DNA of 63,769 nucleotides from Eremomyces bilateralis CBS 781.70 (lineage: Eukaryota): assembly GCA_010015585.1 (NCBI GenBank), contig ML975164.1. One strand, given 5' to 3'. A model generated the notes under the pieces. It was not told the DNA's origin. It was given only the letters and a program-made list of their open reading frames with translations, and made no database searches. Both the position numbers and the translations under genes were made by a program. Shown here one piece after another: positions 2,982-30,229 of this stretch (positions within the stretch are counted from its first letter, which is position 1; each line of letters opens with the position of its first letter).

Positions 2982-4043
2982 TCACTTCAGGTATTCGCGG
3001 AGCATGTCGATCGCACCAGGAGTCTCCGCCCAGGAATTGTAGCTTTGCTGCACAGTAAGGTTCGCGTGCGCCTTCGATCCAGGCGCGTACATTTCCGGGA
3101 CTGAAGCCAGTGCTTCACGAGGAGAAAGCATAGCGGGCCAGAAGAACTCGTTCATCTTCGCGATATTTTGGATGAGGCCCTGAACCTGCCTCTCGAGCTT
3201 GATTATCTGCACACTGTGATCTCCACTGGCCATCATTTCCGGGTTTCCGGTCACGATTGAGCTGGTGACAAGTTTTCGAACTTCTTCGTTGGCGGTCGGA
3301 GGTGCTTTGCCTCCAGCGGAAGCCGTTGCATGATCCAAGGCGCGGAGACTTTGGAGAAGTCGAATTTTCAGTAGTGTGACCGCCGCAGCGTTTGATATAC
3401 CGACTCCGAAGTGTGTGTCGAAATAGTCAGCCTCCTCGAACGCGTCAGCGCCCTTCACATCAAGGTAGGGATTGTCCATGTTTCCCCAATCGTAGGTGCT
3501 TGACTGGCCAGTGGTCTGCCACCATTTAACAAAATCGTAGCAGTCCTGGTCACGCCCCAGACGCAGATATAGCGACGGCATGTAGTCCCGTACCCCTAAG
3601 TTGTCGCCACGACAGAGTTGGAGCATGCCTTCAAGGTGACCCAAAGCAGCTCCTACAGCTGGATAAGTCTTGACTTGCAAGAACTGCTCTACCAGCGTAA
3701 ACCGTGCGCGCATGTACGGGCGGGTGGACTGGATTTTCCAGAACTTCCCTTTGTACGTATCGAAGATATTGGTGAGCTCTTTGTTATTGCCGTGCCAGTC
3801 GAAGCCGTCCTTTTCGAGAGCATTGGGCAGATCGCTCTTGATACGCTCATATGACGTGCGAAATGCCTTGATAGCTTTGCAACCCGATTTGTGGGCGGGC
3901 CAATGGATGGCCTGGTGCTCAGAGCCGCAATAGTGGAGGATCCTACAACCCGAACATAGGGAAAGGTCGGTCGTGGAACCACACAAGACACATTCTGGCT
4001 CGAGGGGAGCACACTCTGCGCTTTCTCCTGGGAGGGAAGACAT
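2982..4043 (-). CDS. MYND-type zinc finger protein (fungal family), 353 aa, intronless
   Basis: CxxC...CxxC...YCxxxHQxxHWxxHKxxC MYND motif; C-terminal motifs PSLYLRLGRDQDCYDF and WAETPGAID are shared with the paralog at 28345-29481. Confidence 0.85.
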   Translation of the reverse strand: MSSLPGESAECAPLEPECVLCGSTTDLSLCSGCRILHYCGSEHQAIHWPAHKSGCKAIKAFRTSYERIKSDLPNALEKDGFDWHGNNKELTNIFDTYKGKFWKIQSTRPYMRARFTLVEQFLQVKTYPAVGAALGHLEGMLQLCRGDNLGVRDYMPSLYLRLGRDQDCYDFVKWWQTTGQSSTYDWGNMDNPYLDVKGADAFEEADYFDTHFGVGISNAAAVTLLKIRLLQSLRALDHATASAGGKAPPTANEEVRKLVTSSIVTGNPEMMASGDHSVQIIKLERQVQGLIQNIAKMNEFFWPAMLSPREALASVPEMYAPGSKAHANLTVQQSYNSWAETPGAIDMLREYLK

Positions 4044-4823
4044 TGTGGCAATGAGTTGACTTCTAAGGATAAACAGTATGTTAGCAGATTATAATCGACA
4101 TCCATAGCATGGAAGAAATTGGTTAAACGCCATTCCATCTGTGCTATATTAATAGTAGACAATCATTACCTGAGACTTTGCTCCAGGGGAATTCAGTGAA
4201 ATTTTGAAATCTCTCGACCCTGTAGTAAACGGGACTGCAGAATGGATATCCGATTGAATATTGAAGTTCAAGAGCAGTCGGTATATTGGAATTGGCGCCG
4301 AAATATTCAGTATTAGGTGTTGCTTGGAAAACGGAAAAACAGCTAAATCCCAGCATGCGGCTAAAAGACGCGGTGAGCTAGTTGTACTACCAAGAAGCAT
4401 AACTACTGACTAACTTAGCTAAATCTAGATTAGCTTGACACGATCTGGACGCGGTTGCACGTGCAGAGCATATGTCCATCGCCAGTTCGCCACCCACTTT
4501 ATGAAAGCAGTCTGAAACCATTCCAACCTTTAATCACTATTAAGGGTTCAATAAATGGCTGGCAATGACGTGAGACGTCCAAGTGGATTCTAACCGATAT
4601 ATGCACACCCGCTACATAGCCTAGGAGTAATGACCTGGTGTTTATTCGCCCTAAATTTCCCTTCGTTTCCCAACAGGATGTGGCATATTGGCCAGGTTAC
4701 TGCTAGCAAGCATGATTGATCCCTAAACTCGTTAAGGAGCGCTGAAGAAGAGTAGCAGACGATGAGGTATATCCTACAGTACTATCGGAGAGTACGACCA
4801 TGTGAAGTCCAGCGAACGATATT

Positions 4824-5522: not shown

Positions 5523-6635
5523 TCATCCCGGTTGCATAATAGCTCTCACATCCCATATTAACACACGCTCGTCCCATCCACAACTCGCACACCATCCTTC
5601 AGCGCCAAACAGACACCAATCGACTCCCGTCACAAACTCCGTATGCCTCCCCATCCTCCCCATCTCTTTCCCAGGCCCAAGGAACGGCGCGTCAGGTTTT
5701 TGCATTCCTTGATCCACCCCCATCGCGCTCCCATCCGTCCACACCCGACAGGTCATGTCATAGCTCGCACTGAGCAACACGTCCGACAAATGCGGGCTCC
5801 ACGATATCTTCCGGACTGCATATTCGTGACCCGGAAGCACGGCGACAGGACCCTGCCCCGGCATGCGGATATCGAACGTCCGGATCGTCCGGTCCACGCC
5901 GGCCGTCGCGACGACTGTATCTCGGTATTTATTCCAGTCGTGCGTAAGCGCCTCGCTGGGCGGTATCCCCATCGGAGGCGCGCGACCAGGCATTGCTTTC
6001 GGCGGAGCGTGGATCGGGATGGCGGCGGTCAGGTGGTTGGAGGCGGAAGCGGGGGTTCGCAGATCGAAGAGTCGCAGGCATGAGTCGGAGCTGACGGCGC
6101 TGAGGACGGAGGGGTTGTGCGGTGAGAATTGAGCGGAGTAGGTGCAGCTATGGATGGGGAGGGTGAGGAGCGATGATTGGTGATCTGGGCGCCAGATCTT
6201 GACGGTACCGTCCCATGAGGAGGAGAGGAAGGTGTCTTTGTTGATGAGGTTCCAGTCGACGGAGAAGACTTCTCGTGCGTGCTCGCTCCAGCTGGCTATG
6301 GGGAAGGAATCTAGTGATATGTCGAATAGTTTGATCGAGCCGTCGCCGCCGGCTACGACGATTTGGTTTTCATGCGCTTCGGACCATGCCGTATCGAAGA
6401 GGGAATCCTGTGTGTCGAACCTGAACTGCTCAGCACCTGTCTCGCGGTGGTTTTACACAACCAACTCTCACCATTTCTCTGGGGCAGCGCCGTTGGCATT
6501 CAAGCCCAGCACATAAAGTCGGCCATTGCCAACCAGGCCAAAGTTTGCCGATGCCGCGACTGCTATGCGGGAGTCGAAGAATGGCGAATACTTGATGCTG
6601 TAGCCATTGAATCCTTGGGTTCGGAATTCAATCAT
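5523..6635 (-). CDS. PEX7: Peroxisomal PTS2 receptor, WD40 repeat protein; intron 6421-6471
   Basis: N-terminus MIEFRTQGFNGYSIKYSPFFDSRIAVAASANFGLVGNGRLYVL; WD repeats HDWNKY, GHEYAVRKISWSPH and HTEFVTGVDWCLFG. Confidence 0.96.
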
Positions 6636-6894: not shown

Positions 6895-7050
6895 ACAGGT
6901 CGATCGCACGTGTGTTCGTGTTGTGCTCGTGTTGCGCGCGTATTTCGGTCGGCTTGCTTTTAAACTGACCAACAATATCTCATCGAGTCATCTTTTCCGG
7001 ATTTTTGGAACTGGGACTTTAAAGCTTAAGAATGTTGTCGATCTGGGTCG

Positions 7051-8459
7051 ATGAAGAAGTGGTTGCCCTTTATGGAGCACTTCATATTAAGGAAACGCCG
7101 AAGAACAAGTCCGATCCAATATGAAAACAAAACTACGGAAGAAGAAGAGAGTACAGATTTCAAGCTCGCCATCCTCTGCTCTCAATATCCGGAACTTGAT
7201 GAATCTGCGTTATTGGAAACCTTACTGGCTTGTGAAGGGTCTGTGGAAGCGGCATCTGAAGCTCTAGAGCACGGGGATACGTTTCGATCGCCTAAGAAAA
7301 GAGACGGGAGCAGGGCTATACAATCTTCATTGTCGTCTTTTGGAATGCAAACCACCTCTGCTGGCCTATCTGCGACCCATGCTAAGAAGAAGCTAACTAG
7401 AAAGGGTCGTACACTCCATCTGTACGCTCCAGCAGACATTGAAGCTCATACGCCGTGCTCCATCATCCATAACTTTTTGCCAACTGAGGAGGCAGACGCC
7501 CTTCTAAAAGAGTTGCTCCAGGAGGCAGTTTCTTATCAGTCCGAGGTCTTCAAGCTTTTCGACAACGTCGTTCAATCTCCCCATACCAATTGCTTTTACG
7601 TCGACTCGTTGGAAGAAGCTCAACGCCAGAAGACAGAGTACACCTACAACGGCAGTCGAGTCAAAGATGTTCGAGAAATTACACCTGAAATGCGCAAAGT
7701 CAGAGCCAAAGTACAAAAAGCTGTCAATACCGAGATCGAGCGCCGTGTCCGCGACTATTACCCGGAAGGAAAGAAGCTGAAGTACCAGTCTCCTCATCCG
7801 TGGGAACCCAATGCAGCTTTTGTCAACTGCTATGACGGTCCTCATCAGAGCGTGGGGTATCATGCTGATCAGCTTACCTACTTGGGCCCTAGGGCAGTAA
7901 TCGGAAGTTTAAGCCTTGGTGTCGCACGCGAATTCCGAGTCCGGCGTGTGCTTGCAAAGGACGACGAATCTGAGTCGGACAATAAGACCTCCAAACCCAA
8001 CGAAAAACGCGCTGATGCCGAGGGTCAAATTGCCATTCATCTTCCTCACAATTCTCTACTAGTGATGCACGCCGAAATGCAAGAGGAATGGAAACATTCG
8101 ATCGCGCCAGCACAAGCGATTGATCCCCATCCACTGGCACAGAACAAGCGGATCAACGTCACTTACCGACACTACAAGAACTTCCTACATCCTAAATATA
8201 CACCTCTATGCAAATGCGGCGTGTCATGCATTTTGAGGTGTGCGATGAAGAAACCGGAGCATCGCGGTCGATACATGTGGATGTGCCATACCAATTATGC
8301 GCCAGGAAAGGAAGGGTATGTATGATTTGAACCAATATGAGTTGTCTATTGACATTGCATAGCTGCTCTTATTTCAAATGGGCCGAATTCAACGATGATG
8401 GAGAACCGGAGTGGGCCACTTCTGTTAACAGAGAGCAATCTAGCCCTAAAGAACAATGA
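7051..8459 (+). CDS. AlkB-family (ALKBH2/3-like) 2OG-Fe(II) dioxygenase with N-terminal CUE-like domain and C-terminal GRF zinc finger; intron 8316-8362; start may be 7072
   Basis: CUE-like KLAILCSQYPELDESALLETLLACEGSVEAA; HxD (YHADQL), distal His (WKHSI) and RINVTYR; GRF-like CKCG...RGRYMWMC...GCSYFKWA completed by the last exon. Confidence 0.88.
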
Positions 8460-10051: not shown

Positions 10052-13000
10052 ATGGCAATGAGGACGGCACTGCTGGGCGTGGCCCTCCTCACGGGCCTGT
10101 CGATGCAGCATGCGGCAGTCATGCCTCCTGAGGTTGACAAGGTCCTCACCCCGAACTCTTCTGAGGCACCTCCAGGGTGCAAGCTGCTGGCTTCTGACAA
10201 AGGCTTCCCGAGCAACGAAACTTGGGCATCCAAACTTCCAGGATCGTACCCCAAATCTTGGGGTACGAAAGGCCCCGATTTCAACTTCGTTGCCAAAAAT
10301 GTGGAAGACGTACAGAAAGCTGTCAATTTCGCAAGCGAGCAAAATGTCCGCCTCACGATCATCACCACTGGACATGATTTCCATGGCCGGTAAGTGGATG
10401 CGTACAGATATCTATGATTTTATCTAACTAGTCTAGTGAAAATGCTCGATCAGGTCTCCGGCTGGACGTGTCTCAATTAATGGATCCTATCGTCTTCCAA
10501 AACGGATGGACTTGTGGCCAATCCATCACTCCGCCGCCCACGACTACGTGCCCCGATGATGACGCGATGCCGGGCATGAACATGACCAGAAGGCTCAAAA
10601 CTCGCCGTGGAATGCAGAAGTTCCGCCATTTTCACAAGCGTCACGGCGATGAGCCAGATGAAGAGCCAGCAGCAGGGTCAACGGCAGGGTCAACGGCAGG
10701 GTCAGCGACGGGGTCAACGGCAGGGTCAGCGGCAGGGTCAACGGCAGGGTCAGCGGCAGAGCCAAGCTGCGAGCATCTGACGAAGCGCCATGGTTCGGGA
10801 GAGGAGACCGATAGCTACAACGTCATCGAGCCTCAAGCTGGCGTGCAGGCATATGCCCGTGTCAGTGCTGGAATGTATCACGAGGCGTTCTATAAGGCTG
10901 CTGCTGAAAGCGGTTTGTTTGTTCTGGGAGCCCAGCACGGTGTAAGTCTCCCCATATTTGTTCTGTTTTGCAGCTTCCTGACGATCAAAGGGCGTTGGCA
11001 CCATCGGCGGCTGGGCACAGGCTGGTGGACACAACCCGCTCTCCCGCGAATACGGTATGCAAGCAGATAACATCGTGGAGTTCGAAGTTGTCCTCGCAGA
11101 TGGCACGTTCGTCAAGGCATCTGAGTGCAGCAATCCTGATCTTTTCTGGGCTCTGCGAGGAGGTGGTGGTTCAACTTTCGGTATCGTCACCGCCGCAACT
11201 GTCAAGGTCTACCCAACACCACCGATGGCTGTTGGTCGGTTCTTTGTCAACTCCACCACCGACGGGCTCTACGATGCTCTTGCATACTTCCTCCAGAAGG
11301 CCCCGGCAATCCGTGAGAAGTATGGCGCTCAGGGCTATTTTTACATGTACCGAAACGCCTTCCAGTCAGTCCTGCACTTCCAAGGCGACGAGGGCACGAT
11401 TGAGAACGCCAAAGCCGCATTCGAGCCACTGAAGCTAGAGATGGAGAAGCTTGCCGGCTCTAATTCCAGCCAGCCCGCGAAGTATTATCATTACGACACT
11501 TATGGGCAATGGTACGCCGCCGAAAACGGTGACGAAGCTATGGAAGAAGCTGGCGCAAGGTGGCTCTCCTGGAACGATGCCAGCGACGGAACCGCGCCAA
11601 GTCAGGCAGATGCCATGGCCAACCCCATCGGTCTGATCCCGTGGTCGGTTAAGTACAAGCAAGCCGGCCTGAACAAGCGTGGTGTGAGCAAGCGCGGCTT
11701 GAGCAGACGGCATGGGGGTGATGGGGATGGGGATGGTGCCGCTACGGAGGAGATGGGGGGGATGGGAGGGATGGCAGCTCGCCCGATGAGGAGAACATAT
11801 CTCGACTCCCGCCTCCTGTCCGAAAAGACTGTCAATTCGGTCTCTCAGGCTGAACTGGCCAAGCTCGTCAAGGCCACCTTGAACCCGGTGACGTCTATCC
11901 CTGTCGATGGTATGGTTATTCGCGGCTTCTTGTTGGGAGGAGGTAAGCAGGCAGAGCCGGCAATTGATGCTACTGCGATAAGTCCATCATGGAGAGACAT
12001 GTCGTACCATTTCATTGTTAGTGGTGTGCCTGGTAACAGCCGCCACGACTTCAATATCTCTGCCATTGCCCAAGCCTTCCCAGAATCAGGTGCTTATATC
12101 AACGAGGTGAGTTATATGCTTGTCATATTGTACTGCTCTGAATTACAACTAACCTCTCCTAGGCTTCACCTGGCAATCTTAACTGGAAGAAGGTATTCTG
12201 GGGCTCCAACTACGCCAAGCTCGAGACCCTCAAGAAAGAGTACGATCCCAAGAACGTCTTTTGGTGCTCTCCCTGTGTCGGTGCAGACGCCTTCACCTAC
12301 GACGATGAGCGCATCTGCCCTAACCCGAGCTATCCATCCACCGGCTCCGGACCAGCGCCCCAGACTTATGAGGACGAGAACTCCAAGACGGGTATCGCTT
12401 CATTGCCAGGTAGCCCCGGATACCCCGACCCGCTTTTACCATACATTCAAGAGTACGTCAAGAGCGGCAAAGTCCCAGCTTCCACCCCAGACTTCAGCAG
12501 TTACTGGCCAGAGGCTGCCATGGAGGGTGGTGGTCATGACCACGGCGAGGAAACCGGCGAGGCTGGCGGGCATGCTCACGGTGAGGAGACCACAACTGGC
12601 GGCACTGAGGCCGGCGGCCATGCGCACGGCGAGGAAACCACTGGTACTGGGACCAATGGAACCGAGACCGGCGGCCACGCACACGGCGAGGAGACCACCG
12701 GTACCGAGACTGGCGGCCACGCACACGGTGAGGAGACCANNNNNNNNNNCGGCCACGCACATGGCGAGGAAACCGTTCCCGCCGCGTCATCGCCCGCTGC
12801 CAGCGCTCCAGCCGCCTCCGCAGGTGCCGCCGCCCCAGCCACTGGCGCCACTGGAGGCGGCTCGGGTCTTGGTGGCCTTGGTGGATCGAGCGGCTCGGGT
12901 CTCAGTGGTCTTGGTGGGTCGAGCAGCCCTGAGACTGGCTCCTCCGGCCTCTCCGGGCTTCTAGGTGGCTCTTCCAGCGAGGGCGGCCTCTTTAGCGGCC

Positions 13001-13248
13001 TCTCGTCTCTCTTCGGAGGATCCTCTGGTTCGTCCGGTCTCTCCCGCCTATTCGGTGGGCTCGGCGGCTCCGGTAGCGGGATTGGGGGCGGGTCGGGCCT
13101 GGGCGGCCTCTCGCGGTTTTCTTCTGGTTTGTTTTCCCCCTTTGCGTTGGGACGAGCAGGGTTAACTTCGGGTTTAGGATCGTCCGGTCCAGTTTCTCTT
13201 GCGCCGTTGTCGGGTGCCGCGCCGGCGAAGAAGCGACGCTCCGAGTAG
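10052..13248 (+). CDS. Secreted FAD-linked oxidoreductase (VAO/berberine-bridge-enzyme family) with low-complexity insertions and His-rich C-terminal repeats; exons 10052-10389, 10437-10941, 10991-12106, 12163-13248
   Basis: Hydrophobic signal peptide; TTGHDFHGR flavinylation motif; GGWAQAGGHNPLSREYGMQADN; DLFWALRGGGGSTFGIV; GAYINEA; BBE C-domain FWGSNYAKLETLKKEYDPKNVFWC. A 10-N assembly gap at 12740-12749 makes the true tail length uncertain. Confidence 0.9.
10672..10755 (+). repeat. 12-bp tandem repeat (GCAGGGTCAACG-like, 7 copies) encoding AGST/AGSA
   Basis: Visible tandem array inside exon 2 of the flavoprotein gene. Confidence 0.9.
12527..12775 (+). repeat. Coding tandem repeat GGH(A/D)HGEET, at least 6 copies, interrupted by assembly gap
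   Basis: GGCGGCCACGCACACGGCGAGGAGACC-type units; translation in ORF 12403-13248. Confidence 0.92.
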
Positions 13249-13364
13249 AATTCCAGTTTCCTTACTGTATATAAATGTAGCTTTTGCATATGAAAATCAA
13301 GAATTGCATGCCATTGCTTTACAACAGAACGTATCCACACGATACACGAGGAAAAATCAATGCA

Positions 13365-15410
13365 TTATTGAAGATGTGCCCGACTCCCGCTAAATAGACT
13401 CTTCCAAATAAACGCCTCACTCAAAAGCAACTCGACGTCTTTTTCGGTCCATTCGCGTGTCGGCAACGCTTGTAGGAACATCATGATCTCTTGGAAATCC
13501 ATCTTCAGGAGCTTATCGGACCATTTGACCAGAAATGCCGCACAAACGTAGAGGTGGAAGTCAGAAAACCCGCGTTCCTCGGCCTATGACTTATTAGATC
13601 CGGGGTGCATCCTGCATGTTTGTATACGTACCAGGTAGGTATCCCACATCCGAATCGTGTTCTTGACACTGATCTCCCTCATTAGTAGACAATTCATCCA
13701 CCTAAAACTAAACTGAATGAACTCGACGCCCTCTCTCTCCAGGTGCTTCGCGAGCGCGCCGTCTATTCTTGTGGTCAAATCCTTTAACCCAGACACCTGT
13801 CTCTGAATCCCGGGTTGCGCGAAAATATAGTTATCCTGGATCCCATCCAGCAGTTTGGTAAGGCACCAGAACGAATCCGCCTCTACCGCATCGATCACAG
13901 GCCGGGGCAGCTGTCCAGGATCCATCCCGAATTCAATCTCGTAGTCCGTGATATAACTCCCCAAAAAAGTCTGCCAGAACGGCGTGACGAGGTCGTTGAT
14001 CCCCTGCACATAGCCCGACGCCGGATGTCGAATCGCCCAGACGTATAATATTCGCTCCAAGCTCCGCTGAGTAGCTTCGTAGCCATACAGCTCGAGATGC
14101 GGATTCGTTCGCGGCACATCGATACTGATCTGATGCCAAATAGCCTCGTCCAGACCGCGTCCTCTCCCCGAAGTTGTCACAGGCTGTGGTCCTGCGCCGC
14201 CCACTCTGGCAGCCACGGCGGATTCAGCGCCGAGTGTCCCCTTTTCGAACGCTTGCCGGACGCCTTCGAGGTACTCCTTGCGCTTCCGCTCGAGGACGGC
14301 GACGCGCCTTTCGGCGTTCGAAGGGAGGTAGCCGAGGAGGAGTTGCCATGACATTGCGCGGACCTCGGGAGGGATGCCGGACCAGGATAATGAGCGGAGT
14401 TCGGAGATATTGATGTTGGAGGTTTGGAGGAGGCGTTTGAATTTGTCAATCCGTGATAGACGAGAGTTGTGTGCATCCAGCTCCTTCGGTGTGGCGGACG
14501 CCGGAGGCGCCGTGTGCGAGATGAGATGGAGACTGTTTGCTGGGTCGCGGAGAATCTCTTTGTATTGTGGGCGGAGGATCTTCTGGTCCCTAGTGGATTT
14601 GTTTGCGGTAGGGTAGGTGGGGATGTCGCGTTCCAGCGCTATGTCTCCAGTATCAGACAAAACGCTCGTTCGGGATATGGTCTGACCCAGCGGCACGGAT
14701 TTGATGTTCGGTGATCTAGAAGATAGTCCTCCTTTGGCGGGCGTTGACCGTTTAGTTTTCCTCCGTATGCTGGTAATGCTCGGTAAACCGAACTCGTCTT
14801 CATCATCGTTGAAGTCGAACTCTTCGTCGTCCTCGTCACCTTCGCCATTGCTTTCCGTATTCCAACTTCTGGTCGCGGCAGGGTTGAAACTAGCGTATGT
14901 TCGGCGGATCGGAGGGGAAATAGGTCCGCTACGTGAAGGTCCGGAGCTAGTCTCACGTTGTTGAGAGGCCGTCGGTGGTGTATTAGGTCGTTTGTTTCCT
15001 GATATCGATCTATACGGTCAGGTCTCGTTGTCGGCTCTAAGCAGCCATGCCTACGCTTACAAGGAATCAAACGACAGATTGTCCGCATGTGAATAGGATG
15101 CCCCGACGACCTTTCGCTGCTCCGGGGATTTTGAGGGGCTCGAGGAGTTCATGCGCCAGAATGGTGATGCGGAACTGGAGACTACGTCAGCTCGGTTCTC
15201 TTGATGTCCAAGGAAACACCCTACCTCGAACGATCTGATGCTCTCCATGTTAGCACACTGGTATGACCACTCTAAAGCTTGGATTACAGGGGATAATACG
15301 AACCAACCTGGGCCATCTCCTACAATGGCGTCGTTAGCAACAGTACATATATTGTCAACAGCAGTTCAGAGTGGACTCACCTGCTGAGGCTTTTGCTTCT
15401 TGGAAGCCAT
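13365..15410 (-). CDS. GYP1: TBC-domain Rab GTPase-activating protein; multi-exon, including 5' micro-exons; start codon uncertain
   Basis: WSGIPPEVRAMSWQLLLGYLP, QISIDVPRT (IxxDxxR), SGYVQGINDL, FRWMNCLLMRE; last exon DFQEIMMFLQALPTREWTEKDVELLLSEAFIWKSLF. Confidence 0.92.
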
Positions 15411-16132: not shown

Positions 16133-19100
16133 ATGGCTGACCATGAGGAAATCGAAGATGATCTCTTCGACGATCTGTAAGTCAACTCAGAGGTGCCATA
16201 TCAGATGAATCTTTGCTTACTTTTGGCGCGTTAGTTATGATGCCGATGATGTCCAACCCAAGGCCGCTGCAACTAGTGTGCCCGCACCGCCCAAGCCTGA
16301 GCCTGAACCTACGATGCCCACACATCCTCAATCCGTCGAAGTCCCATCAGTTGATGACGCGCATATGAATGAAGGTTATGGAGGTCCAGTGGAGTTCCCC
16401 ACGAATGGCCACGCGACGCATGGCGAGGAGATGGATCACTCCACAACTGCGCCGGATCACGATGACAATTATGGGCCAATCGGCATTAAAGAAGATGGGT
16501 GAGTACTTGCGTGCGTTCGTTCCAATGTTTGATGTTCCCTCCACCCTCGATCGATTTCATCACGTGCATACAGCACGTTCTCAAAGGCAAGGCGTTTGCT
16601 CTACGTCGAGGATATGGCCGATGAAAGCCGTGCATTTGGACCGTTGGTATCGGGCTATTACGTTGGCGGTGATGGAAAAGCCTCGAGTTGTTGTGGATAA
16701 TGGCAGCTGTCAAGTCATTGAACACTCGGGAACGTTCAGACAGCACCTGACTCGGAGAGTTTTGATGGCAGCATCGATGTCAAAGTCTGGAACGGAGTGT
16801 GGTCGGTAAAATACATCAGCTGCGTTGCATGTGGGCATGATTTGCTCAACAAGCGCCCGAACTGGCTTGGAATCATGGGCAAGCATCTGCTTCAAGTCGC
16901 CTAACCATCAATACATCATTGGTCATGTCTCAGCAATGCGGATCAATGGGCTGGTTTCACCAGGACTGAATGATACCCTCGAATCATCATCTACGGAGTC
17001 AGCAAAGATATCAGAATCCAGCTAGTACTACTATTCACAATAGGTACATATAGCCACAATGTCGCGGACTTATTCCATGAGCGAAGAACAGAGAGATATC
17101 GATTCATCCACAGAACGTCCTCTACAGGATCCTGTTGGATATGGACGACAGTACCTAGACTCCTACCTAGACTTCGGCTAGCTTCGACCATACCATCAGT
17201 AGCAAAACGCAGATGGTTTCCTTCGGATCAAACTGTGCATTTGCTACCACGAGACAAACTATCATGAACGTTTGGAAGATCCCCGCCTTTCGGGCCAGGG
17301 CATGTGTTCAACTCTGCGGGTGGATGATGATGCATCCTCACTCTGCATACACTGGGTGGGGGCGCATAATTGTTCTATCGACGAGGATGTTCCATGGGGC
17401 TATTCACACAACACCAACCCCAATATCTTGAAGATGGAACTTTCAATGGCTTAGAAGGGACTCGATGTTGGATGACAAACTCCATGCTCTCACCTACAAT
17501 TTATCCAGAGCAAACGCCGCCTTTGAGATGTCACGAGTGTTCCCCCACTGCGAATGCCAGCGGATAGTGGCATATCGGCATTGTTGTCCATTTCAGCACC
17601 ATTATTTGACTTATTCTTGCTTATGATTGCCACCATTCATGTATGTGCTAACATTGTTAACAGTAAAATGTTCATCGGGGGATTGAATTGGGAAACAACA
17701 GAGAGTGAGTAGAGAGATCCTCGATCCCCATATAATCGCAATCAGCAGTCAGTTCTAACAATATCGCTCCAGAATCACTGAAAGACTATTTCTCACAATT
17801 TGGAGAAGTCACTGAATGCACTGTGATGCGTGATGGTGCCACTGGTCGCTCTCGAGGATTTGGCTTCTTGACTTTCCGAGACCCGAAGACCGTCAACATC
17901 GTCATGGTCAAAGAACATTATCTGGACGGGAAGATTGTAAGGCCGTATCCTTCTTTTGCCTAATAATTACTGACAGTTGCATAGATCGACCCCAAGCGGG
18001 CCATCCCACGTGAAGAGCAGGAACGCACCGCCAAAATCTTCGTCGGCGGCGTCTCCACCGAAGCCACCGAAGCCGACTTTAAGAACTACTTCAAGCAGTT
18101 TGGCCGTGTCATCGACGCAACGCTCATGATGGACAAGGACACTGGACGGCCCCGTGGCTTCGGATTCGTGACCTTCGACGGTGACGAGGCAGTCGATGCC
18201 TGCTTAGCTCAACCCCTCGACATTCTCGGAAAGCCCATCGAAGTCAAACGTGCCCAACCGCGCGGCAACATGCGAGATGACGACAACCAGAAATTCGGTC
18301 GACGCGGATTCGGACGCGGCGGCGGCGCGCCCCAGCACCAAGACATGTCCATGGAGGCCGGCAACCAGAACGCGAACATGGGCAGCATGCCGCAGAACAC
18401 CCAAGGCATGTCCCCGGCGATGATGGCACAGTACTGGCAGAAGATGCAGCAGTACTTCGCCATGATGCAGCAGAACCTCCAGATGGCGCAGCAGCAGCAG
18501 ATGGGCGGCGGGATGCCGATGGGTATGAACCCGGCCATGATGCAGCAGATGATGGCGATGCAGCAACAACAGCAGCAGCAGCAGCAGGGCCGCGGTCAGA
18601 ACCCTCAGTCTCCTGGCATGAACCCCGCCGCCATGATGGGCATGAACCCCGCCATGATGCAACAAATGCAAGCCCAGGCCCAAGCCCAACAGCAAGCAGC
18701 CATGCAAGGTCAAGGCCAAGGCCCCGGCTCCGGCTCCACCCCCGGCACCCCTCCCGCCGGCCCCTCCGCCCAACTCCAACAACCCGGCGCCCCCAACCCC
18801 ACCGGAACCAACGGCGCCAACCCAAACCCCTCCCGCGGCTACCCCGCCGAACCCTTCGACCAACAAAAATACGACCGCCAACAACAGCAGCGCATGCAGC
18901 AATACGGCGCCCACGGCGGCTTCGGCAGCCCCACCAGCTGGGATGGCATGTACGACGGCGACCCGCAGCCGGGTATGCCGCCTGCGGGCCCGCGGGGGGT
19001 GGGCGCGCGCGGACGCGGTGGCCGAGGAGGAGCGGGCGGTGGACGTGGCGGAATGAGTCCGGGGGGGGATGCACCGGTGCAGCCGAGTCAGGCGCCGGCG

Positions 19101-19202
19101 AATGCGCCGACGGGGCCGAAGAATGCGGGGAGGCCTGGGGCGAATTATCGGGGGGGTGGGAGGGGAGGGCATCGGGGAGGGTATCATCCGTATGCAAGGT
19201 AA
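16133..19202 (+). CDS. HRP1: hnRNP / cleavage factor IB two-RRM RNA-binding protein; exons 16133-16176, 16235-16498, 17664-17704, 17773-17936, 17985-19202
   Basis: KEDGKMFIGGLNWETT, GRSRGFGFLTF, LDGKIIDPKRAIPR, GRPRGFGFVTF; Q/M-rich and RGG regions; C-terminal PY-NLS RGGYHPYAR. Confidence 0.93.
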
Positions 19203-19837: not shown

Positions 19838-22655
19838 TTACACCACCCCATACGTCTTCCTCGCCAAAAAGAACGCAAAGAGCCCGAACATCAGCAGGAA
19901 CGACGTGATGCTCCAGAACCAGTACAGATTCTCGATCTCTTGCCCCGGTACCATAACGTTCATCCCCCACATGCCTGTCACCACGTTCATCGGCAGCACG
20001 ATGGTGCCGAGGACGGTGAGCTTGTTCAGCACGTTGTTCGTCGATTCGGCGCGGTCGGTCATGCGGATGCTGATCTGCGCGAGATAGTTGGAGTGCGCGC
20101 GGGAAAGCAGGCTGAGGACATGTTAGTCACCGTCTTAACGAAGAACAGACAACTCAACGCAAGAGGAAAGGGTCCGTACTTCTCATAGTGACTCAAATTC
20201 CCCGTCATCGTCACAATGTGATCCTGTATATCCCCCAGGTACATCCCAATCTCGTTCCGCGGCGCCACCGCCCAATGCTCATTACACCGCTTCGCGAACC
20301 CCCTGATCACGTCCGCTTTGTTCCCCAGCAACCGATACAGCGACATCACCTTCTTCCGACACTCGCCAACCCGCCGCAGCATATCCGAGCTGCTCTCCTG
20401 CGGCGCTAACGCCGTGTTCTCCGACTTCTCGTCGGGTTTCCGCGCCTCGTCGACTGGGCCGTAGCCGTCTTTCATGGTGCAGTCATGGCGGAGGAACGGC
20501 GGGACGAGGCGCTGGACGAGCGAGCGGCGGGGGGGGGGCGGCATGCGGGAGTTGAGGCGCTTCTCCTTCGTCATGGTGCTGAGGGCAATTTCGCCGAGGA
20601 TCCTGTCGTCGATCTCATCGACTTCTTCCTCGATGACCTGGACGAGCGGGGCATAGGCGTCGGTGATGTCGTCGATGATGGCGTAGGAGATCCAGTCGGC
20701 GGAGACGACCATGTAATCGGAGAGCTGGCGGATGCGGCGACGCACGTTGGCGGGGTGCGGAGTGGGGGACCAGCGGAAGCTGATGAGGCCGTCGCGAAAG
20801 ACGACCCAGTAGATGTTGACGGGGTCCATGTACTCGTCGCTCGTGGTGTCTTGTTCGAAGGAGCGGTAGTTGCAGAAGTAGTAGTGGCCGAAGAGCTCGA
20901 CTTTCTCGCGCTCTTCTTGCTCGAGGATGTCTTCGACGGTTAGGGGGTGAAGGTCGAATGCGCGTTGGAGGACGCGCATCTCGGTCACGGTGGGGGAGAG
21001 GACATCGAGCCAGAAGGTAGGACGAGGACCGTAGCGTTTCTCGTGAGGTGGCGAGGGCTGGAGCGGATGTGGGACAGGAGTAGTCCGTCCGGTGTTGGTT
21101 TCCGAGGGTTGCTGGCTCTTTTCCTTACCGTTTCCAAATTTTGGAGATAGGAGATGTCCATTTCTAGAGTGCTCGAATGGGGATGGAGAATACTGCCTCC
21201 GTGGGGTGGCATCGCCATGTGCCGAGACGCCTTGCGGGTCGTCATCATCGGAACTGTCGCTTTCGAGCTCGGGTGGATCGGGTAAGAACAACGATTTAAA
21301 CGTGACCGACTCGGCATGTGTCAAACCTGACAGCGTCTGGCTATGAATCGTCTTCGAAAACTCCGGATTGAAGTATGTGAAGCGGAACGGCGCATCCTCC
21401 ATCGGACGATGCCACACCTGCTTTCGAGGCCTGTATCTCCCATCAACCATCGTCGGCTCGACCATCGACCGCGCTCGAAGGTTCCCCAGACTCCATTCCT
21501 CCTTCTCCTGCTCGCTCCACTGATCCAATATATCGAGCTTTGGCCAGACTTTCCGTTTCCTCTTGCGCGCTACGTCGACAGGGGAGACGCTCGTTTCCGA
21601 CATAAGCCGGGAAGGCTCCTCTCCGATATCAGACAGGATGTCATGTGGGAAGCAGACATCTTCTTCAGGGGCCTTGGTCATTCGTCGCTTGATTTGATCC
21701 CATGACGGTGTCGTTCCTATCGACTCTGCGCGACCGAAGGCGGATTCGAGGTCTATAAACGGATCCCTAGAGCGCGACGGGCTATGTACGGGTATATGAG
21801 CGTCCATGTCCACACTTGGAAAGTACTCATCATTCAGTTGCTGTGGCACGATTTCTGGACTCGCCGGAACGGAGGGAGGATTGTTGACGTCGTAGTCGGG
21901 AGCGTCGATAATCGAGTTATACATGGATTGGCGTCTCTCGACCGGGGCGGGAGAATTTCTAGACGATGGTCTTCCTCGACCAGGTAAACGAGTGAGGCTC
22001 GAGGTGCTTCCCGTCCCTCCATATCCAAAACCGGTTGTAGTCCCAAATCCGCTTTGGCGAGTCGGTGACTTCAGCAGCGGTGATGTATCATGAGCTCTGT
22101 CCTCCCTCTCGCTTCCTGACGAAAGCGGATGGACCTTGTCAAGCTTCGATTTCGACCGACCTTTCGACGTACGCGATGCGCTTTCACGGGGTATGATAGG
22201 GGCTGACTGGATAGTAGGTCGGATGGCAAGTGGGCTTTGCTGAACATTCAATCCTCGACTTCGGGACGGTCCTTGTGGTCTATCACACCCGAGTTAGCTG
22301 CTTTCCCTTAGATCTCGCATATGAACAAGCCCAACCTGTGATCCATCATATCCAAACTCGTATTGCTCTGACCTCCATTCTGGCTGAGCCGATAAAAGCT
22401 ATCTCGCGCAGCAGCCGTTCGTGCCTCCATCATCCTCTCATGCTCCGTATCCGTCGCATTGCTCGGCTCTGCCACGGGATTCGCAAAGGATTCCCGTCGA
22501 TTCTTTCGCTTCTTCTTCCGCTTTTTCGATTGCCCTCCCCGCGATTGGGATGATTGTGTGCGAGATGGTTGCGCTGTGGAGCTCGATGGTTCCATTGGAT
22601 TGGATGGTTCCCCGGGAGCAGGTGTCCGAGGGGAAAGTGATGAAGGTGAGTCCAT
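19838..22655 (-). CDS. CorA-family Mg2+ transporter, Mnr2/Alr type; 3 exons
   Basis: FWLDVLSPT, LHPLTVEDI, REKVELFGHYYF, WISYAIIDDITD, YLGDIQDH, TVLGTIVLPMNVVTGMWGMNV (GMN signature) plus two TM helices. Confidence 0.92.
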
Positions 22656-28344: not shown

Positions 28345-29481
28345 TCATTTCGCGTTGATGTCCTGCTTTTGGTGGGCACACGTTTTCTTCGAAACATCAG
28401 CTAGCTCCAGCTTGATACCCATTTGCTCGATGAATTCCATCGCATGATCTATCGCACCGGGCGTCTCGGCCCAAGCATCGCAGCTGTTCTGAAGGACGTA
28501 TCGGCCGCCGGTTTCACAGCAAGGACACCTCGTACCGCTACCGAGGCCTTGCTTCGATCTCGGATGGATCAATCCGAGCCATGTAGACTTGAATCTCTTG
28601 CTGACAAGCCTGAAGAGGAACTGAACTTGCATCTTCAACAGCTGGATTTCGTAACTTCGGTCGGTCGACTCCATGATCGTTCGGTTCTTCACTACCACAG
28701 GCCTGACCACATAGAGACAGATGTAGTCGAGGATCTCCGTTGGGACTCGCTTTCCGACAGATTCAGTGGTAGCCTGGAGAGCAAGGAGGTCTTGGAGCAA
28801 GCGAAACTTGACCAACATGACGGCAACCAGGTAAAAGAGTTCGCAAGGAGCGGCACTGTCCGTGAAGTACTCTAGATCTTCGAAAACATTGGAGTTCTTC
28901 ATGCTCACGCACATGTCACCCATTTCCCCCCACGGTATGTCCGGTGCTTTCTTGTCGAAGAAGTCCTGGATCATAATATTCCACTTGCAGAAATCGTAGC
29001 ATTGCTGTTCGAGACCAAGGCGTAGGTAGAGCGAGGGAAGATATAAGACGATTCCCGTGTAGTCCTGAAAATCGAGCTCCACAATGCCTTGGCAATGAAA
29101 GATCGCAGCTTGGATCGAGTCGAACGTATTCATTTTCACCATCGCCGTTACCAAGTCCTTCCTGGCACCAAGATACTGATGGACGCCATCCAATTCCGAA
29201 AACCATCCTCTTGCCTCTTCGAAGAGATTGTCCGACAATCCTAAGTCTCCAGCGTGATCACGGAGCATATGCTCTTCCAACTGGAGGCACGTGGTGTAAT
29301 ATCCCACGTCTTTGCAATCGCGTTTATGCTCCCGCCAGTGCGATGTCTGGTGGTTTTTGCCGCAATATAGCACCAGACAACAACCCGTGCAGCGCCTAAG
29401 GCCATCTTTGGAACCGCACACGGCACATTGGCGTTCAAGCGGTGGCTTTGGCGCTGGCATTGTAGCTGTGATCGCTACCAT
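28345..29481 (-). CDS. MYND-type zinc finger protein, 378 aa, paralog of 2982-4043
   Basis: CAVC...CTGC...YCGKNHQTSHWREHKRDC; PSLYLRLGLEQQCYDF; WAETPGAID. Confidence 0.85.
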   Translation of the reverse strand: MVAITATMPAPKPPLERQCAVCGSKDGLRRCTGCCLVLYCGKNHQTSHWREHKRDCKDVGYYTTCLQLEEHMLRDHAGDLGLSDNLFEEARGWFSELDGVHQYLGARKDLVTAMVKMNTFDSIQAAIFHCQGIVELDFQDYTGIVLYLPSLYLRLGLEQQCYDFCKWNIMIQDFFDKKAPDIPWGEMGDMCVSMKNSNVFEDLEYFTDSAAPCELFYLVAVMLVKFRLLQDLLALQATTESVGKRVPTEILDYICLYVVRPVVVKNRTIMESTDRSYEIQLLKMQVQFLFRLVSKRFKSTWLGLIHPRSKQGLGSGTRCPCCETGGRYVLQNSCDAWAETPGAIDHAMEFIEQMGIKLELADVSKKTCAHQKQDINAK

Positions 29482-30229
29482 TGCGGCTATTGAGCTCGAG
29501 CTGAGTTAAAGATGGTAAGTTCCTTGTATTACGCGTTGAAGTGTTGTCCCTCCTGTCCCTTCTGTTTAGTTGGAAAGGCAGCAAGGCAGCAACACCCACC
29601 AACTAAAAGTGGACCGTGGGGTTGGAGAAAGGGTCAGGATGACCATCATGATCAGAGCAGGCTACATGTATGTCCTCGATTTGTCAGTGGGTGCTATGCG
29701 AAATATAAGAAGAGAGTTTGATGGTTGTTCTTAGAAAGGTACATGGCCAAAGCATGCCTCCGCGCGGTCTTCCTTCTCGCCCTATACATTATAATTTAGA
29801 CCCGTTTCTTCCACTCCTTCTTCTTCTCCCCTTCCGTCATCTCCTTATCCTTATCCTTCCCCTTCTCTTTATCTCATTCCTACTCCATGTCCACGGCACC
29901 AATCGGGCCACATTCATTTTCTTCCGCAAGAGGAGGCGCCTCCCAGGGTCTACCGTGAAAAAATCGACCTTCAGGTGTGGGATGGCAGGAACGGTTAGGA
30001 GGCGACTGCCGTCGTCGACTCCGAAACTTCGAATGAGAGTAGGAATCTTATCTCGTAAGCATGGTCCAACAATACGGTCAAGAACCACGACTACATTCCC
30101 GGATATCGTAGCGGTCATGTCTCCAGGGAGACGGCAGGGATAGCCCGTTGGGGTTTCAGGGTTGGAGGCCATGATGAGCAGATGGTGTGGCAATGGACTA
30201 GGAGCGAGAAGATTGGTTGGAGCGTGACG

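Follow-up and report, generated by a model that had tools for sequence, protein, structure and literature searches.

The oxidases MtVAO713 and MtVAO615 of Myceliophthora thermophila (6F74, 6F72) form a distinct subclass of the VAO/BBE-type flavoenzymes. They are secreted with loss of 26 N-terminal residues, carry FAD on a histidine, have Glu in place of the catalytic Tyr and large loops in the FAD domain, and their substrate is unknown (PMC6017366). By sequence and by fold they are the closest solved relatives of a protein encoded in a 63,769-nucleotide stretch of Eremomyces bilateralis CBS 781.70 (contig ML975164.1, assembly GCA_010015585.1), which is called the window here. As judged from its sequence, the gene at 10052-13248 encodes a secreted VAO/BBE-type oxidase of the MtVAO615/713 subgroup. 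It shares with both enzymes the predicted secretion and His-flavinylation, the Glu, a C-terminal Cys-containing extension and the large FAD-domain loops. Unlike the window protein, MtVAO615 and MtVAO713 have no module made of a dibasic pair followed by His-Gly, no Met/His clusters and no long tail. The loop of MtVAO615 has LGPAPYGNAAYFPFT-NSRII at the place where paralogs of the window protein have KR/HGPGE.M...P-LDSRLL, where the slash, here and below, marks a predicted cut.

Several other described systems resemble parts of this layout. In the histidine-brace proteins (lytic polysaccharide monooxygenases (LPMOs), CopC and X325/Bim1-Cbi1), an N-terminal His exposed by proteolysis is a defined copper ligand (PMC10952591, PMC7529816), and Bim1/Cbi1 is an extracellular copper binding-and-release protein (PMC9258870). 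The brace His follows a signal peptide and belongs to a rigid immunoglobulin-like fold with a second fixed His, whereas the window protein, a flavoenzyme, would acquire it when a kexin cuts within its disordered loops. Many LPMOs likewise begin with His-Gly. The multicopper oxidases CueO and PcoA and the Ctr1 ectodomains have clustered MxM and MxxM motifs with interspersed His and Gly in flexible segments, similar to the repeated MEGMGHGG of ortholog tails, and the Met-rich domain of CueO recruits Cu(I) (PMC12041951). In contrast to hosts of the CueO type, the window enzyme is a flavoprotein without a copper site of its own, and it has two short Met clusters and mostly HxH units. The K2PP effectors and KEP proteins, which are processed by Kex2, have a dibasic or LxxR motif, Leu or an aliphatic residue at P4, and disordered sequence (PMC8528282), a layout that the window protein resembles. 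Their cuts remove an N-terminal pro-domain or free repeats, whereas the cuts considered here would nick a fold and set new chain starts. The AA7 oxidases and dehydrogenases are secreted BBE-like flavoenzymes that are functionally coupled to mononuclear copper enzymes (PMC8035211). They have the catalytic Tyr, mostly bicovalent FAD and no metal-binding arms, and their partner is an LPMO, not a PHM/Nod19-like domain as in relatives of the window protein. The hexose oxidase of the red alga Chondrus crispus, a BBE-like flavo-oxidase, is nicked in vivo into two fragments that remain associated, and was early on called a 'copper glycoprotein'; it belongs to a separate lineage with no known dibasic/His-Gly module. 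The passages on hexose oxidase in PMC4513209 and PMC4761204 neither support nor refute the nicking and the copper, since they list it merely as an FAD enzyme and mention copper added to the expression medium.

The reading favoured for the window protein, tentatively and with a little less than even confidence, is an oxidase with His/Met copper arms that are exposed by cleavage. The oxidase fold would bear grafted disordered segments with the module [L/M/F]-x-[K/R]-R, H-G-(P/G/D/S), an acidic run and often Met 4-14 residues on. A Golgi kexin (Kex2) would cut behind the dibasic pair of each module, and the mature enzyme would consist of at most four chains (23-181, 182-230, 231-521 and 522-end), held together by the fold and, in the case of the short 182-230 piece, by a disulfide between Cys151 and Cys224. 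Each new chain would begin with a free His, whose amino group and imidazole, with nearby carboxylates and Met and with the HxH and MxxM clusters, would form flexible copper arms. Cu(II) would be preferred by the His sites and Cu(I) by the Met sites, and the arms would capture, hold or pass on copper beside a flavin that generates H2O2 or can serve as an electron donor. The initial annotation of this gene spoke of a Kex2-cleavable 'polyprotein'. The Kex2-like sites are present. The word polyprotein goes too far, since the pieces belong to a single fold and would not come apart.

The gene and the elements of its fold are as follows.

10052-13248, plus strand: full coding sequence of the flavo-oxidase, split into four exons (10052-10389, 10437-10941, 10991-12106 and 12163-13248), with a TAG stop at 13246-13248
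10052-10117, plus strand: putative signal peptide, aa 1-22, with an Arg in the n-region, a hydrophobic core and the end ...QHAA/V, read from the sequence and alike in orthologs
10364-10381, plus strand: TTGHDF flavinylation motif, in which His108 corresponds to MtVAO713 His159 (8-alpha-N1-histidyl-FAD)
10390-10436, plus strand: intron 1, 47 nt, GTAAGT...CTAAC...TAG, exactly skipped in one contig of run X3
10942-10990, plus strand: intron 2, 49 nt, whose removal restores the conserved GAQHGGVGTIGGW
12095-12168, plus strand: YINE-AS, spread across intron 3, in which Glu653 corresponds to MtVAO713 Glu543
12107-12162, plus strand: intron 3, 56 nt, GTGAGT...CTAAC...TAG, in agreement with tblastn using ortholog P0007
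12196-12282, plus strand: core of the BBE domain (Pfam), ending in the Cys pair of CSPCVG

This is a real fungal gene. Its introns of 47, 49 and 56 nt all have GT..AG ends and CTAAC or CTGAC branch sites, and its exon blocks are reproduced by tblastn with P0007. The product is 1014 codons as read, four of which are X from a run of N. Pfam matches both domains expected of a VAO/BBE-type oxidase, and the interrupted fold proposed in the initial annotation is borne out, as FAD_binding_4 (PF01565) is split by an insert. The exon 1 part covers profile positions 4-37 at 20.1 bits, which alone is under the 26.4 cut-off, and the exon 3 part covers 98-138 at 34.0 bits. BBE (PF08031) is matched in exon 4 at 37.1 bits against a cut-off of 20.6.

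The fold and disorder results come from models of the ortholog P0007 and the paralog P0012, which serve as proxies for the window protein. A phmmer search of P0007 against solved structures gives MtVAO713 at 6.6e-45 and MtVAO615 at 7.8e-41, and a Foldseek search with its model gives 6f74 at the top (E 4.7e-32), followed by 6f72 (6.5e-30). Membership in the AA7 gluco- and chito-oligosaccharide oxidases was considered and rejected, because the catalytic Tyr is replaced by Glu and the AA7 structures rank under MtVAO615/713. The equivalence of Glu653 and Glu543 is drawn through P0007, in which 'yvneaap' aligns with 'yMNEgdg' of the MtVAO713 chain. The equivalence of His108 and His159 is drawn in the same way ('ittghdfhgr' with 'sstGHDllGR'), and covalent FAD at His108 is predicted from this alignment of the GHD motif. 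The position of MtVAO615 Cys222, which makes the bicovalent 6-S-cysteinyl link, has no Cys counterpart in the window protein (segment GAQHGGVGTIGGW); MtVAO713 has Ser there and other homologs Val or His (PMC6017366). As the second flavin-linking Cys is absent, the flavinylation is probably mono-covalent, via His108. The CSPCVGAD...C of the MtVAO615/713-type extension is conserved in orthologs.

Two inserts and the region behind the BBE domain hold the remaining motifs.

10519-10833, plus strand: insert 1, aa 141-245, within the FAD-binding domain, flanked by Cys151 and Cys224
10567-10608, plus strand: MPGMNM (10567-10584) followed by TRR-LK-TRR with two RR pairs; NMT is an N-glycosylation sequon
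10630-10668, plus strand: module A, FHKR/HGDEPDEEP, with K180 at nt 10636, a predicted cut after Arg181 and the new N-terminus His182
10669-10764, plus strand: (A/S)GST linker, a 12-nt tandem repeat present 7.3 times
10777-10806, plus strand: module B, LTKR/HGSGEE, with K229 at nt 10783, a predicted cut after Arg230 and the new N-terminus His231
11648-11791, plus strand: insert 2, aa 501-548, a loop ahead of the TYLDSRLL strand, corresponding by position to the loop at the entrance to the active site of MtVAO615/713, which it shapes
11669-11737, plus strand: module C, LNKR GVSKR GLSRR/HGGDGDGDG, with three dibasic pairs, R520 at 11705 and the predicted new N-terminus His522
11753-11773, plus strand: MGGMGGM Met cluster, a 9-nt repeat
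12526-12774, plus strand: His-rich array of GGHxHGEET units with six HxH
12775-13245, plus strand: region of 157 aa, Ala/Pro-rich and then Ser/Gly/Leu-rich, with GLSGLGG and LFGG motifs and the end KKRR-SE

Both inserts are coding sequence. At each of the three codon positions their GC content lies between 0.59 and 0.70, while the introns have 0.34-0.43. The coding frame of insert 1 has no stop, against four and four in the other frames, and that of insert 2 has none, against four and two. The tandem repeats have periods of 12, 15, 6, 9 and 33 nt, each a multiple of 3. A scan of insert 1 for canonical introns yields no candidate, and insert 2 has a single one, which shifts the frame and has no branch site. 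Unannotated introns are thus excluded as an explanation by the GC content, the open coding frame and the lack of a frame-keeping canonical intron. Neither the sequence nor the contigs of run X3 give a sign of splicing of the inserts, which the initial annotation named as evidence against its proposal, though these contigs are no clean mature mRNA and do not decide between retention and removal.

Relative to MtVAO713, insert 1 adds about 90 residues (chain 188-213 against query 137-249). The AlphaFold model of P0007, which has the same layout as the window protein, has a core of 438 residues at a predicted confidence (pLDDT) of at least 90. Its residues 150-224, 459-511 and 732-803, which comprise both inserts and the tail, are below 50, as is the loop 414-433 of P0012, which has KR/H at 429-431. 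The inserts are thus predicted to be disordered surface segments in the ortholog; the initial annotation had proposed a check of this kind.

All three dibasic/His-Gly sites and both Met motifs beside them (MPGMNM and MGGMGGM) lie where the initial annotation had placed them. The claim that the protein ends in a His-rich tail needs correction, since the 157-aa Ser/Gly/Leu-rich region comes after the array. Module A matches FFRR/HGPGDEEE of P0007 in position. Module B lies nine residues upstream of the YNVIEP segment, where the conserved core alignment picks up again, and has homologous sites in P0002, P0007, P0008, P0009, P0224 and P0082. Module C is built on 15-nt and 6-nt repeats. The flanks FHKR, LTKR and LSRR are of the kexin type, with Lys/Arg-Arg at P2-P1. 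There are two overlapping MxM/MxxM matches in insert 1 and two in insert 2, while ortholog tails have up to eight. His would be the first residue of mature chains of the window protein only if the predicted cuts occur.

The region behind the array has its own features. The GLSGLGG and LFGG/GLFSG motifs resemble cohesive repeats of the FG type, positions 12857-12924 hold a tandem repeat of 33 nt, and the KKRR-SE end is a further dibasic site, six residues from the C-terminus. A C-terminal glycosylphosphatidylinositol anchor is ruled out by this charged KKRRSE end, which has no hydrophobic tail.

The number of dibasic sites in insert 1, which is four in the window protein and typically three in Venturia-type orthologs, brings in another explanation. 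The oxidase could be a carrier, as in KEP-like proteins, from which the stretches between dibasic sites (for example aa 182-230) are freed as acidic or His/Met peptides that act as extracellular metal carriers or signals. Peptides released by Kex2 are an established fungal class (PMC8528282). The paralog P0233 of Aulographum has the classic layout of Kex2-processed repeat proteins on a BBE-like oxidase, as read from its sequence: its C-terminal ~250 aa consist of five ~45-aa tandem repeats delimited by one MKR and four VEKR sites. P0233 also has FAR/HGPGGDEEE near the N-terminus and VKR/HGGEPM 16 residues before DSRLL. In the window protein, Cys151 and Cys224 flank insert 1 and have matching Cys in aligned orthologs, which suggests a disulfide between them. 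Such a disulfide would keep the 182-230 piece tethered after a double cut. The fragments are also poorly conserved in sequence and length, and peptide release is very unlikely.

The ortholog clade is small. A search of 1.84 billion representative sequences gives just 33 at E 1e-30 or better, and some 22 proteins share at least 46% identity with P0002; the named members are from Eremomyces, Venturia, Aulographum and Microthyrium, and the best relative of the window protein has 58% identity over exon 3. Insert 1 can be compared in 16 sequences of the clade. Seven have [KR]R/HG, five have [KR]R/Q followed by clusters of the MEGMEGM type, one has KR/DEPDMPGMKGM, one has KR-STGHGP, and two (P0001 and P0078) have no insert 1. 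In the two loops of 28 sequences of the clade, His follows 11 of 75 dibasic sites, a count that excludes GRR/HGP of P0009, which the regular expression missed, and all 11 have Gly next; among the 2885 residues of these loops, 2.7% are His. In Venturia, Microthyrium and many environmental sequences the tails carry repeats of the MEGMGHGG type, and those of Eremomyces, P0078 and the window protein have GGHxHG units. The tails vary in sequence and not in kind. The recurrence of KR/HG and of the Met motifs at the same loops of homologs, which the initial annotation proposed as a check, is therefore found.

The variability of the loops also invites another account, namely low-complexity drift, in which loops tolerate repeat expansion, surface Met are sacrificial antioxidants against the enzyme's own H2O2, and KR/HG has no specific role. 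The inserts are made of short tandem repeats, their length and sequence are highly variable among orthologs, two of which have no insert 1, and the overall Met/His enrichment is modest. Drift does not predict the fixed His-Gly at P1'-P2' (43 of 64 dibasic-His sites), the Pro at P3' (44 of 51), the hydrophobic bias at P4 or the fixed spacing to DSRLL, which are described below, and it is decidedly improbable.

The wider subfamily set comprises 238 proteins, which are the window protein and the fetched BBE-like homologs. The pattern [KR]R/HG[PGDSE] occurs at 39 sites in this set. The layout is no oddity of this gene and belongs to the subfamily as a module, a wider spread than the initial annotation expected. 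The residue at P4 is Leu in 22 of these sites, Met in 6, Phe in 5, Lys in 4, and Gly and Arg in one each, and the residue at P2 is Lys in 30 and Arg in 9. This bias at P4 fits the extended Kex2 motif, which prefers Leu or aliphatic residues there (PMC8528282). The set has 643 dibasic pairs; His comes next in 64 of them (10.0%, compared with a general His frequency of 2.4%) and His-Gly in 43. Of 97 HGP tripeptides, 33 stand directly behind a dibasic pair. The consensus after His is G, P (44/51), G/D/E, E/G and D/E, often with M and P. At least two acidic residues are present at P3'-P9' of 37 of 51 module sites, against 22% of 612 control dibasic sites, and Met is present at P4'-P14' of 25 of 51, against 19% of the controls. 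The 51 module sites include three or four false N-terminal matches, which are fragments that start in the core GGHGP motif.

Seven proteins have HG(P/G) directly after the signal peptide, with no basic pair. P0017 has ..AFVAA/HGPGG and P0236 has ..AHA/HGP, while P0015, P0016, P0018, P0089 and P0012 have a small residue (G/A), X-Pro and then HG. Dipeptidyl aminopeptidases of the Ste13 type remove X-Pro dipeptides. Judged by these patterns, all 46 contexts have in common a secretory processing site immediately ahead of the His. As the HG start occurs behind both dibasic pairs and signal peptides, the constant feature is the processing site and not the basic residues. This is the pattern expected if the function requires a free N-terminal His.

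The same observations bear on the possibility that the module is not cut and that Lys/Arg-Arg-His in a flexible loop binds an anionic substrate, a cell-wall polysaccharide or the surface of the FAD domain. Basic residues plus His are a common anion-binding combination, and most paralogs have the module in the active-site entrance loop. An uncut patch is hard to reconcile with the HG start behind signal peptides, since the basic pair is dispensable in those seven cases. The hydrophobic P4 (L/M/F in 33 of 39) is a trait of protease subsites and not of ligand binding, the acidic run comes after the motif, and the motif shifts among four positions. The uncut patch is thus very doubtful.

These four positions are the N-terminus, an N-terminal extension, insert 1 and insert 2. 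In the models, the module always lies in low-confidence segments (150-224 and 459-511 of P0007, 414-433 of P0012). It is commonest in insert 2 of paralogs, in which 13 of 15 scored sites lie 13-23 residues before DSRLL, seven of them at exactly 17. The loop Leu399-Thr413 of MtVAO615, ahead of the NSRII strand, is described as crossing the active site and lining the pocket (PMC6017366). The paralog insert-2 module is probably in this entrance loop, and from the alignment an arm that starts with His would sit at the opening of the active site.

This position agrees as well with a zymogen or lid, in which the dibasic cut of insert 2 opens or remodels the active-site entrance, His-Gly-Pro serves protease recognition or the shape of the chain end, and the Met/His clusters are incidental. 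The fixed distance to DSRLL in paralogs, the replacement, by position, of residues ~399-413 of MtVAO615 and the Kex2-like flanks would all be accounted for. It would leave unexplained that HG(P) also occurs after signal peptides, within insert 1 and within N-terminal extensions, as well as the acidic and Met bias after HG(P) and the Met/His tails. The His of the window protein lies 30 residues from the DSRLL strand, as in P0231, and not about 17. A zymogen or lid is considered unlikely.

An indirect link to copper comes from relatives. In the paralogs P0012-14, a BBE-like flavo-oxidase is naturally fused to a C-terminal domain of ~330 aa, which is Nod19-like according to the ESM Atlas (score 0.93) and has sub-cut-off matches to Pfam SURNod19 (E 0.0017-0.047). 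A phmmer search of the P0012 domain against PDB sequences yields no match at E up to 10. The model of P0012 residues 642-962 aligns with PHM (1sdw_A) at Z 13.7 and rmsd 5.4 over 233 residues, and with dopamine beta-hydroxylase (4zel_B) at Z 11.1, followed by proteins of the PNGase F type at Z 7-8. In the model, the kinship to PHM appears at the level of fold alone. In an alignment of 19 Nod19-like domains, both fused and standalone, WLHH, GHxHxGG and an MG at the C-terminus are conserved in at least 85% of the sequences, which we take to be the ligand pattern of the two PHM copper sites; no third His of the CuH type is seen in this alignment. The modelled PHM/DBH-like fold suggests what the Nod19 family may do. 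The copper-responsive miR398b of bean targets Nod19 alongside Cu/Zn superoxide dismutase (PMC3882225), and the function of Nod19 is described as otherwise unknown (PMC9632046). By analogy, the PHM-fold fusion of P0012-14 suggests a partnership between flavin and copper comparable to that of AA7.

The standalone Nod19-like homologs that were compared (P0238, P0239 and P0243) are from the same fungal groups. A loop of P0239 (..MPGMNMTRRNTRRQM..) has nearly the same string as insert 1 of the window protein (MPGMNMTRRLKTRRGM, nt 10567-10614), with MPGMNMTRR..TRR in common. The N-terminus of P0243 has a GLS..LFGG Ser/Gly region and MAGMDMG clusters, as in the tail of the window protein and in ortholog tails. 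The two secreted families, oxidases and Nod19-like proteins, appear from these strings to share disordered modules.

A bolder version of the cleavage-exposed copper arm follows from the entrance loop, and it is quite unlikely. A kexin cut there would leave a His-Gly-(Pro)-acidic-Met arm anchored within a few residues of the flavin. By binding copper with its free N-terminal His, the arm would make the oxidase a flavo-cuproenzyme, in which a weakly bound mononuclear copper receives electrons, or nascent H2O2, from reduced FAD. The role of the enzyme would be to reduce cupric ions outside the cell and load copper, or to serve Nod19-like copper oxygenases of the PHM fold as an in-built reductant, with P0012-14 as the covalent version of the pair.

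Several points weigh against copper arms in the window protein. The cleavage, the identity of the metal and the redox coupling are what we infer. The homologs are kin, and the site counts are not independent events and overstate their number. Insert 1 is missing from P0001 and P0078, and the insert-2 sites of the ortholog clade are mostly KR/S or KR/D and not KR/H. The window sites are HGD, HGS and HGG, not the family-typical HGP. Met and His are 4.4% and 4.1% in insert 1, 8.7% and 1.5% in insert 2, and 4.7% and 3.3% in the tails, against 3.1% and 2.7% in the core. A brace requires a second, structurally fixed His, for which no candidate is visible, and the sequence after the His is predicted to be disordered. 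The characterised relatives MtVAO615/713 lack the module, and the crystal model of MtVAO713 spans residues 27-598 (PMC6017366). The copper link through Nod19 and PHM is by way of paralog fusions, while the window protein has no such domain. The Mac1-type copper-response element TTTGCKCR is at chance level in the window, with 11 found against 8.5 expected; 25 of 100 shuffles reach 11, and two matches lie upstream of the gene (8638 and 9445). No copper transporter or Nod19-like gene is present in the window, and no biosynthetic cluster is found around the gene. The genes listed for window positions 1-30000 are unrelated and of the housekeeping type.

1490-2176: P450 fragment
2982-4088, minus strand: zf-MYND protein
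5523-6452, minus strand: WD40 protein
7030-8325: AlkB-like 2-oxoglutarate oxygenase
13584-15017, minus strand: RabGAP-TBC protein
17985-19202: RRM protein
20059-22293, minus strand: CorA-like Mg transporter
28345-29505, minus strand: zf-MYND protein

The contigs of the sequencing run X3, which is guessed to be RNA, are a mixture and not clean mature mRNA. One contig has intron 1 spliced, others retain introns 1, 2 and 3, and no joint crosses insert 1 or 2. Because intron 1 is spliced in one and retained in others, they give no firm word on the mature mRNA elsewhere in the gene. A 3517-nt contig of X3 starts at 11736, keeps intron 3 and extends beyond the gene end toward the minus-strand RabGAP gene (open reading frame 13584-15017). 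Its word depth is 346, far above the 3-12 found over the 5' half of the flavo-oxidase gene. Antisense or read-through transcription of the RabGAP neighbour may account for this contig; contigs carry no strand information.

12741-12750: run of 10 N, within a GGHAHGEET repeat of the His-rich array

Between 12734 and 12775 the window has 40 nt, against 46 in contigs of runs X1-X3. About 16 nt thus stand behind the ten N, and the reading frame stays intact. The minus-strand open reading frame at 12576-13364 was rejected as a gene, being a stop-free frame of 262 aa that mirrors the GC-rich repeats of the plus-strand coding sequence. It is of low complexity, rich in Pro, Glu and Arg, and antisense to the repeat-rich 3' end of the flavo-oxidase gene, and is most likely no gene.

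The enzyme family is known, while the module and the way of making N-terminal-His sites that it implies appear undescribed; full-text searches of one open-access library found no BBE-like or VAO enzyme with this layout. The module is short and sharply defined and is thus usable at once for mining secretomes and for proteomics of semi-specific peptides that start with HGP. If the proposal is true, it would be a new route to an N-terminal-His metal site, by internal kexin cuts in disordered loops as opposed to a signal-peptide cut on a rigid fold, and the oxidase would be the first BBE-like flavoenzyme with copper-handling arms of its own. The proposal gives a testable role to the orphan fungal VAO-type oxidases of the MtVAO615/713 subclass and to the Nod19 family of plants and fungi. 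The pairing of oxidase and Nod19 points to an extracellular redox pair of flavin and copper, analogous to AA7 or CDH with LPMOs, which would occur in Dothideomycetes and Onygenales, including plant pathogens such as Venturia.

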